64,000 bases of DNA from a virus (taxonomy: Duplodnaviria > Caudoviricetes). Shown here piece after piece: positions 10,378-10,519 of this stretch (the first letter of the stretch is position 1; each line of letters starts with the position of its first letter). The stretch covers positions 1 through 64,000 of IMG/VR virus record IMGVR_UViG_3300028914_000071, one strand, 5' to 3'. The notes under the pieces are model-generated. The model ran no database searches. It had not been told where the DNA came from and was given only the letters and a program-made list of their open reading frames with translations. A program made the position numbers and the translations under genes.

Positions 10378-10519
10378 GCTCCCATAATTCAATGGTAGAA
10401 TAGCAGACTTTGTGAAAATAGTTTAATGTAAAACTTTGAGCCGAATGGTTTGAAATATGAGTTCGATTCTCATTTTTTGCTCTAATCTGTCTATCCCAGT
10501 TCAACTCTGGGTGGGGGCA
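10378..10519 (+). tRNA. interrupted tRNA (probably Lys-TTT) with a tRNA-like insert in the anticodon loop
   Basis: Outer cloverleaf 10378-10411 + 10483-10519; insert 10412-10482 has its own acceptor, D and T arms. Confidence 0.8.

Follow-up and report, generated by a model that had tools for sequence, protein, structure and literature searches.

The window, the whole 64,000-nt stretch analysed here, covers the opening 64 kb of a phage contig of 77.5 kb whose estimated completeness is ~43%, and 23 ordinary tRNAs were called within it. At 10378-10519 lies a tRNA gene whose anticodon loop is interrupted by a 71-nt, tRNA-shaped insert (Table 1). All stems named in an earlier sequence-only reading of this nested arrangement are present, and ARAGORN and Rfam agree with it. 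When introns were allowed, ARAGORN called tRNA-Lys(ttt) at 10378-10519 with an intron of 71 nt, the spliced sequence was also called tRNA-Lys(ttt), and the insert alone scored 36.7 bits against the Rfam tRNA model (gathering score 29; E 2e-4).

Table 1. Positions of the split tRNA-Lys gene, its parts and the neighbouring features in the window.
Feature	Positions	Strand	Basis or remark
T4 Rnl1-type RNA ligase, candidate sealing enzyme	454-1590	+	PF09511, E 5e-19
ROOL RNA	9119-9702		
5' exon of tRNA-Lys(UUU), nt 1-35	10378-10411	+	Intron-less alleles, ARAGORN
tRNA-shaped leader-less intron, 71 nt	10412-10482	+	Rfam tRNA score, folds, empty alleles
Intron acceptor stem	10412-10418/10474-10480		
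Intron D arm	10421-10434		
Intron anticodon-less arm	10435-10454		
Remnant of final HNH codons (E-W-F-E-I-stop)	10443-10460	+	Comparison with 713-nt alleles
Intron T arm	10457-10473		
Intron U73	10481		
Intron C74	10482		
3' exon of tRNA-Lys(UUU), nt 36-73	10483-10519	+	U36 first; CCA not encoded; U after gene
Free-standing GIY-YIG endonuclease	11448-12077	+	One in-frame TAG, conserved in L099 and G001
tRNA-Asp(GUC), intact	12384-12456	+	Empty allele; relatives have a tRNA-shaped intron (nt 1-CCA76) at 35/36
Ro60/TROVE gene	14478-16166		End of tRNA cluster; conserved in G001 and L099

The nested fold has a predicted energy of -34.8 kcal/mol, compared with -36.8 kcal/mol for the MFE structure, and pair probabilities in the inner helices range from 0.58 to 0.89; taken alone, the folding z-score is modest (-2.1). 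Both junctions oppose each other across a 4x5 internal loop, and a central helix is absent. The last four bases of the 5' exon (C32-U35) also serve as the leader (-4 to -1) of the inner tRNA-like structure, which is predicted to present an RNase P substrate with a 12-bp acceptor and T stack, a T loop, an unpaired leader and U(-1). Its D loop holds a single G, and the elbow of the modelled element may be imperfect. The inner element has no 7-nt anticodon loop, this position being occupied across alleles by loops of 3, 4 or 10 nt or by a whole ORF. Among 1283 tRNAs (mean score 20, sd 7), the best non-self match of the insert was the tRNA-Gly(UCC) of G001 (score 57), a complete, intron-bearing relative of 180.6 kb, and by its sequence the intron scaffold was probably derived from a phage tRNA. 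Cultured phages yielded no match to the element. The outer tRNA is 100% paired, with four compensated pairs; since each of the two exon bodies is also found intron-less, this covariation is no proof that selection acts on the split gene. Pairs of the Lys intron are retained in six alleles; these are too similar to one another for covariation to be informative, and within the intron no two-sided covariation was found and pairing was no better than in shuffles.

Relatives of this phage were recovered from gut samples, the rumen among them, and binning placed proteins of close relatives with a Eubacterium MAG; the host is therefore likely to belong to the Bacillota. Late and structural genes use a recoded TAG (52655-64000 in the window and, in G000, onward to 77095), with terminase and portal recognisable under code 15 only, and the GIY-YIG endonuclease downstream of the split gene may be synthesized only after the onset of recoding. 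The absence of another Lys(UUU) tRNA, stated for the window in the sequence-only reading, extends to G001, where the intron-split copy is the only tRNA-Lys. G001 additionally encodes an intact Arg(UCU) tRNA and its own amber suppressor, a Gln-like Sup-CUA tRNA (120615-120689) situated ~1.2 kb from a gene for a Pnk-like kinase with an HD domain.

Several neighbours of the split gene were recorded as well. At 10013-10086 lies a tRNA-like RNA, unlike a normal Val tRNA, whose anticodon loop has 9 nt and whose 3' end is atypical; it is conserved in relatives, where its loop varies. Abutting the 5' side of tRNA-Lys, 10290-10377 is a conserved, structured-looking non-coding stretch found in intron-bearing and empty alleles alike, with no Rfam match. 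In G001 (L036, 13694-15102), two extra genes with the look of a nuclease and a methyltransferase, and no Pfam match, follow directly 3' of tRNA-Lys. A sheep-rumen RNA contig of a relative fuses the ROOL 3' end to the 5' end (9695 to 9108, depth 355); the ROOL RNA is possibly circular, in which case a phage RNA ligase may have closed it, and an assembly effect is likewise possible in this single contig.

Intron-less alleles and the identity of the predicted spliced tRNA

Judged from the sequence alone, several junctions would restore a 7-nt anticodon loop, and intron-less alleles were needed to decide between them. The first of these, L099, was found by a scan with the 3' exon, and ~45 more loci were fetched via the gene immediately downstream. 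Over 9 kb, L099 matches the window at 98-99% identity; what it lacks is precisely 10412-10482, with the alignment breaking at 10411/10483. L094, from another phage and found by the same scan, is also intron-less, as are L331, L332, L350-360, L362, L365-368 and L371. All intron-less alleles read Lys(UUU) and leave a single possible junction, 35/36. The sequence-only reading had called for such a survey of relatives, and had predicted that removal of 10412-10482 gives Lys(UUU). Comparison with the intron-less alleles confirmed these bounds, the position at anticodon 35/36 and tRNA-Lys(UUU) as the product, with the correction that the insert includes one base beyond the inner discriminator (C74). 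Furthermore, the same insert recurs with small differences in independent assemblies (G001/L026, L097, L333, L370, L372-375 and L377), which ruled out an assembly chimera, a concern of the earlier reading.

A different product is very unlikely. The options considered were Arg(UCU) through a 1-nt shift of both junctions, a frameshifting tRNA with an 8-nt loop and an amber suppressor, the last being appealing in a TAG-recoded phage whose partial contig has no CUA tRNA. In addition, ARAGORN labels the G001 copy Arg(tct), and a cut after U73 would leave an 8-nt loop. However, the Arg and suppressor readings fail because the empty alleles are all Lys(UUU) and G001 has its own Arg(UCU) and a separate Sup-CUA tRNA at 120615. 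The single junction of the intron-less alleles also excludes the 1-nt shift that the sequence-only reading had left standing; A20, a base of Arg identity, is absent from the outer D loop, and a suppressor junction would produce a 6-nt loop. Alanine identity of the insert through G3-U70 was likewise dropped, as this pair is confined to the window allele.

Polymorphism and homing history of the intron

Three states of the Lys site were observed among relatives: empty, with a 713-nt intron and with a short intron of 70, 71 or 77 nt; the empty state occurs with either exon body. The 713-nt form (L342, L345, L361 and L369) carries a gene for a 199-aa HNH endonuclease (E 1e-17 against a PHROG HNH family) in the loop of the arm equivalent to the anticodon arm, and the final codons of this gene double as part of the T stem and of the arm's 3' strand. 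As the last HNH codons survive in the window (Table 1), the tetraloop at 10443-10446 is, on allele comparison, the scar of the HNH-gene deletion. The sequence-only reading had described a tetraloop arm in place of an anticodon, which is indeed present, and had missed its origin as a remnant. Comparison of the alleles shows that the intron is polymorphic among near-identical phages, that its long form carries the HNH gene and that the window copy is a shrunken homing intron from which the endonuclease gene has been lost. Two marks of a homing intron were found, namely an endonuclease in some alleles and an intact empty target.

Deletions in the 70-, 71- and 77-nt alleles spare the acceptor, D and T arms together with C74, and the structure is likewise spared in Glu introns of 58 and 100 nt. 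L345 combines the 5' exon of a different Lys allele with the intron-flanking bases of this one, leaving a mismatched acceptor stem, and this chimeric exon looks like a homing co-conversion tract. Polymorphic tRNA-shaped introns interrupt further tRNAs in this phage group (Asp, Glu, Gly, Cys, Asn, Ile, Tyr and Gln), where the cargo is an HNH, GIY-YIG or PD-(D/E)XK gene or none.

Three observations concern endonucleases in and around these introns. L099 encodes (7340-7930, minus strand) a free-standing HNH protein that is 44% identical to the Lys-intron HNH and ends a few bases before an intron-bearing tRNA-Asp; collaborative homing, or a source of intron cargo, is possible. The free-standing GIY-YIG endonuclease of the window is an improbable homing partner, being present in intron-less L099 too. 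Unrelated HNH and GIY-YIG proteins (L069 intron, L341, L344, L350 and L369) end in a similar short acidic peptide, the codons of which are the 3' strand of the intron arm, and these endings suggest a shared cassette end.

Group I introns typically carry homing endonucleases, and theta ribozymes adjoin tRNAs in recoded gut phages (PMC10879173), two points in favour of a self-splicing ribozyme (group I/II, HDV-like/theta). Nevertheless, such an intron, or an archaeal bulge-helix-bulge intron, is extremely unlikely here: the tRNA fold accounts for all 71 nt, no Rfam intron or ribozyme was matched, the last base is C and not G, and the 4x5 internal loop between the junctions leaves no central helix.

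Alternatively, the insert could be an unspliced selfish homing cassette that arose from a captured processed tRNA and knocks out a dispensable tRNA, with host enzymes perhaps cutting out the inner RNA and the halves decaying, or with the inner RNA serving as a decoy. Phage tRNAs are often dispensable. The polymorphism of the intron, the mismatched acceptor stem left in L345 by apparent co-conversion and the match to tRNA-Gly(UCC) of G001 would all suit a cassette of this kind. Conversely, in alleles that have lost the endonuclease the deletions do not reach past the arm, leaving the acceptor, D and T arms and C74 in place, and the outer tRNAs are nearly free of decay. G001 moreover has no second Lys tRNA, and AAA makes up 3.7% of G000 codons. 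Considering also the boundary evidence below, we judge such a knock-out quite unlikely.

Boundaries of the intron and its predicted release

Introns of this family were sought by a scan for two T loops ~38 nt apart, and two types were distinguished: type A with a 5' leader containing a small covarying pseudoknot, and leader-less type B, which includes the window intron. In the type A loci L023, L025, L028, L030, L032, L014 and L012, a leader CAG or CGG pairs with a hairpin loop, and no Rfam match was obtained. Across the family, insertion sites are 34/35, 35/36 (the majority) and 36/37. Sampled matches in genome contigs were mostly duplications of tRNA 3' halves, with one type A intron (L327).

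Type B introns start at inner nt 1, 12 bp from the T loop, despite widely differing acceptors, a geometry that was partly imposed by the detector; the same start is independently borne out by the Lys and Asp empty alleles. RNase P measures from the tRNA elbow and cuts at nt 1 (PMC4919913), and the leader C(-4)-U-U-U(-1) fits the leader preferences measured for E. coli RNase P (PMC9433436).

At the 3' boundary, the intron ends N73-C74 before U36, with C74 invariant and N73 variable in all Lys-intron alleles. Among the distinct CCA-less tRNA genes of this lineage (insert excluded), 48/50 end N73-U or N73-C-U, and 21/50 share the N73-C74-U75 end of the inner element. C74 is followed by U in 21/21 of the CCA-less genes that have it, compared with ~35% by chance, for genes that are related and non-independent. 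This N73-C74|U convention in the phage's own tRNA genes answers the caveat of the sequence-only reading that a cut exactly after the discriminator would leave an 8-nt loop. Within the phage group, introns before a non-U exon end in full CCA in 9/9 cases and non-CCA ends occur solely before U, in a collection whose first search patterns demanded a 3' exon beginning UAA and were biased toward U-starting exons; L082 and the L060 Tyr intron break this rule. In other phages the intron end tends to mirror each phage's tRNA 3'-end habit (7/7 vs 0/6), and in type A phages, where 138/146 ordinary tRNA genes have C74, the inspected type A introns end at C74. As a strict rule, however, mirroring is weakened by the present lineage, which mixes CCA-ended introns with CCA-less tRNA genes, and on the sequences compared the U-or-CCA rule replaces it.

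A single putative enzyme, cutting either past a CCA or directly ahead of the first U, would explain both end types. The RNase Z of B. subtilis reportedly cuts before a downstream U, including a U further downstream. Its activation by a downstream U is the subject of Pellegrini 2012 (PMID 22940585), and a cut at U73/U74 is reported. In vitro and with Co2+, RNase Zs (that of B. subtilis included) also cleave 3' of an encoded CCA (PMC7479834). Counting against such an assignment, CCA substrates are processed slowly by bacterial RNase Z in Mg2+, and long 5' extensions slow the enzyme. Boundaries at 73, 74 or 76 are known processing intermediates and could also record the capture of processed tRNAs, as the knock-out cassette would have it. 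Capture is nevertheless insufficient, since it accounts neither for the structure-sparing deletions nor for the dependence of the intron end (before U, or CCA) on the base that opens the 3' exon, a base that would be of no consequence unless the cut had to be exact.

We consider it probable that host RNase P and RNase Z excise the intron and that a phage ligase seals the exons. After transcription both tRNA bodies would fold, and host RNase P would cut at inner nt 1 (10411/10412), leaving a 3'-OH on the 5' exon. An RNase Z-type enzyme would cut before the first U past the inner discriminator (10482/10483), leaving a 5'-phosphate on U36. The exons would be held together by pairing in the outer tRNA until a phage ATP-dependent RNA ligase (the Rnl1 of the window or the Rnl2-type enzyme of G001) sealed U35 to U36, yielding a normal tRNA-Lys(UUU). 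The released anticodon-less RNA is probably a by-product, and the intron would persist mainly as a selfish element rendered harmless by splicing. RNase P leaves a 3'-OH on the upstream piece and RNase Z a 5'-phosphate on the downstream piece, the two ends that Rnl1 and Rnl2 join. In four rumen metatranscriptomes (contigs only, 5-10% of words), coverage of 10364-10485 was zero, which speaks neither for nor against splicing.

The product of 454-1590 matched the T4 Rnl1 chain 2c5u (E 1e-8) with the motif I lysine and other motif residues aligned, and on this alignment its catalytic motifs are intact. Rnl1 was present in 4/4 type B genomes at least 80% complete, in 0/5 complete type A genomes and in 4/12 complete controls, and 4/5 type A genomes had an Rnl2-type match (one below the family cut-off); these co-occurrence counts are small and phylogenetically non-independent. 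G001 encodes both an Rnl1 and an Rnl2-type ligase in addition to the Pnk-like kinase with an HD domain, and neither an RNase Z-family gene nor RtcB was found in G000 or G001. The excision and ligation logic of the sequence-only reading is supported by comparative evidence, while its choice of the 454-1590 protein as the one ligase was too narrow. An argument that a ligase without Pnk points to sealing only fails, as G001 has a Pnk-like gene.

The same mobile intron and the same Lys(UUU) product could also arise if at least one cut were made by a phage endonuclease or another host nuclease recognising the tRNA shape, possibly followed by end-healing by phage Pnk. Such a nuclease would suit the variable 3' site (after 73, 74 or 76), the many small unannotated genes around the tRNA cluster, the Pnk-like kinase of G001 and the pseudoknot leader of type A introns, which RNase P alone would not remove. 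However, the variation at the 3' site obeys the CCA-or-U rule that matches the phage's ordinary tRNA genes, the 5' site is inner nt 1, no RNase Z-family gene is carried by G000 or G001, and the short alleles have no protein coding. We therefore regard a dedicated nuclease of this kind as unlikely, and retain cleavage by host RNase P and RNase Z as the preferred reading.

Relation to known introns and implications

Inserts of a similar kind have been noted before, as the sequence-only reading had mentioned for other large phages. In Lak megaphages, Devoto et al. 2019 described "enigmatic" tRNA introns, one of them possibly encoding a tRNA, and gave no mechanism (PMC6784885, Fig. 4, Table S6); a 2026 survey repeats the remark for recoded jumbo phages (PMC13037316). 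Those introns resemble the present one in being anticodon-loop inserts of large TAG-recoded gut phages that are present or absent between relatives, and four Table S6 entries have a T arm and an acceptor-like stem at the 3' end (PMC6784885). They differ in possessing a 5' pseudoknot leader (type A) and ending at C74, whereas the window intron is leader-less and starts at inner nt 1, and the Lak papers give neither a homing endonuclease form nor a boundary rule. A literature search, with most subscription journals outside its coverage, turned up nothing published on leader-less introns, on their homing form or on such a splicing route. The element is a real feature and a variant of an intron kind that was noted and left unexplained.

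Among better-known systems, group I introns are marked by a catalytic core, a 5' U-G pair and a terminal G. Like the window intron, group I introns of bacterial tRNAs sit in anticodon loops; these and phage homing introns loop an endonuclease gene out of a peripheral stem, and they follow the same course, in which an intron invades, loses its endonuclease and keeps a minimal core. In contrast, the core retained here is a tRNA mimic, with no ribozyme core or terminal G, and splicing of the window intron must for this reason be protein-catalysed. Cutting and ligation by proteins also removes archaeal and eukaryal introns from anticodon loops (EndA/TSEN with RtcB or Trl1). Those lie at 37/38 with a bulge-helix-bulge, whereas the window intron lies at 35/36 (34/35 to 36/37 in the family) with no such motif; its predicted ends are 3'-OH and 5'-phosphate, and RtcB is missing from G000 and G001. 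tRNA punctuation, MALAT1 mascRNA and tmRNA similarly use a tRNA-shaped module to direct two cuts in a longer RNA (PMC4919913). The difference is that in the window the outer tRNA keeps the flanks together and their re-joining is predicted, which would make the module an intron.

A parallel for the ligation step comes from T4, where Rnl1 and Pnkp repair tRNA-Lys cut by PrrC; the Rnl1 family, the Pnk-like gene of G001 and the Lys(UUU) loop substrate are common to both. In the window, however, the break is programmed by the genome at 35/36 rather than made by PrrC, a host defence nuclease, at 33/34, and no healing is expected. The link to PrrC drawn in the sequence-only reading found no support: the spliced tRNA has an ordinary loop, and protection from PrrC is therefore unlikely as the purpose of the intron.

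Overall, it appears rather likely that these elements represent a third route of tRNA splicing, in which widespread mobile phage introns are disguised as tRNA precursors, released by host RNase P and RNase Z, joined by a phage ligase and spread by interchangeable homing endonucleases borne on the anticodon arm. What this locus adds is the series of empty, long and short alleles at a single site, and a U-or-CCA rule that is tied to the phage's tRNA genes and predicts specific mutants. One phage group supplies a 142-nt substrate, intron-less controls, long and short alleles, a CCA-ended sister intron and a candidate ligase, making the question directly testable. Annotation would be corrected as well, since ARAGORN overlooks such genes or assigns them a wrong anticodon. 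If the proposed route is true, a repair ligase and two maturation nucleases would suffice for splicing, and neither a ribozyme nor a splicing endonuclease would be needed; the introns of Lak and jumbo phages, unexplained since 2019, would be accounted for. Phage RNA ligases would gain a housekeeping role besides the repair of defence damage, and the tRNA supply of these phages might depend on a phage ligase.
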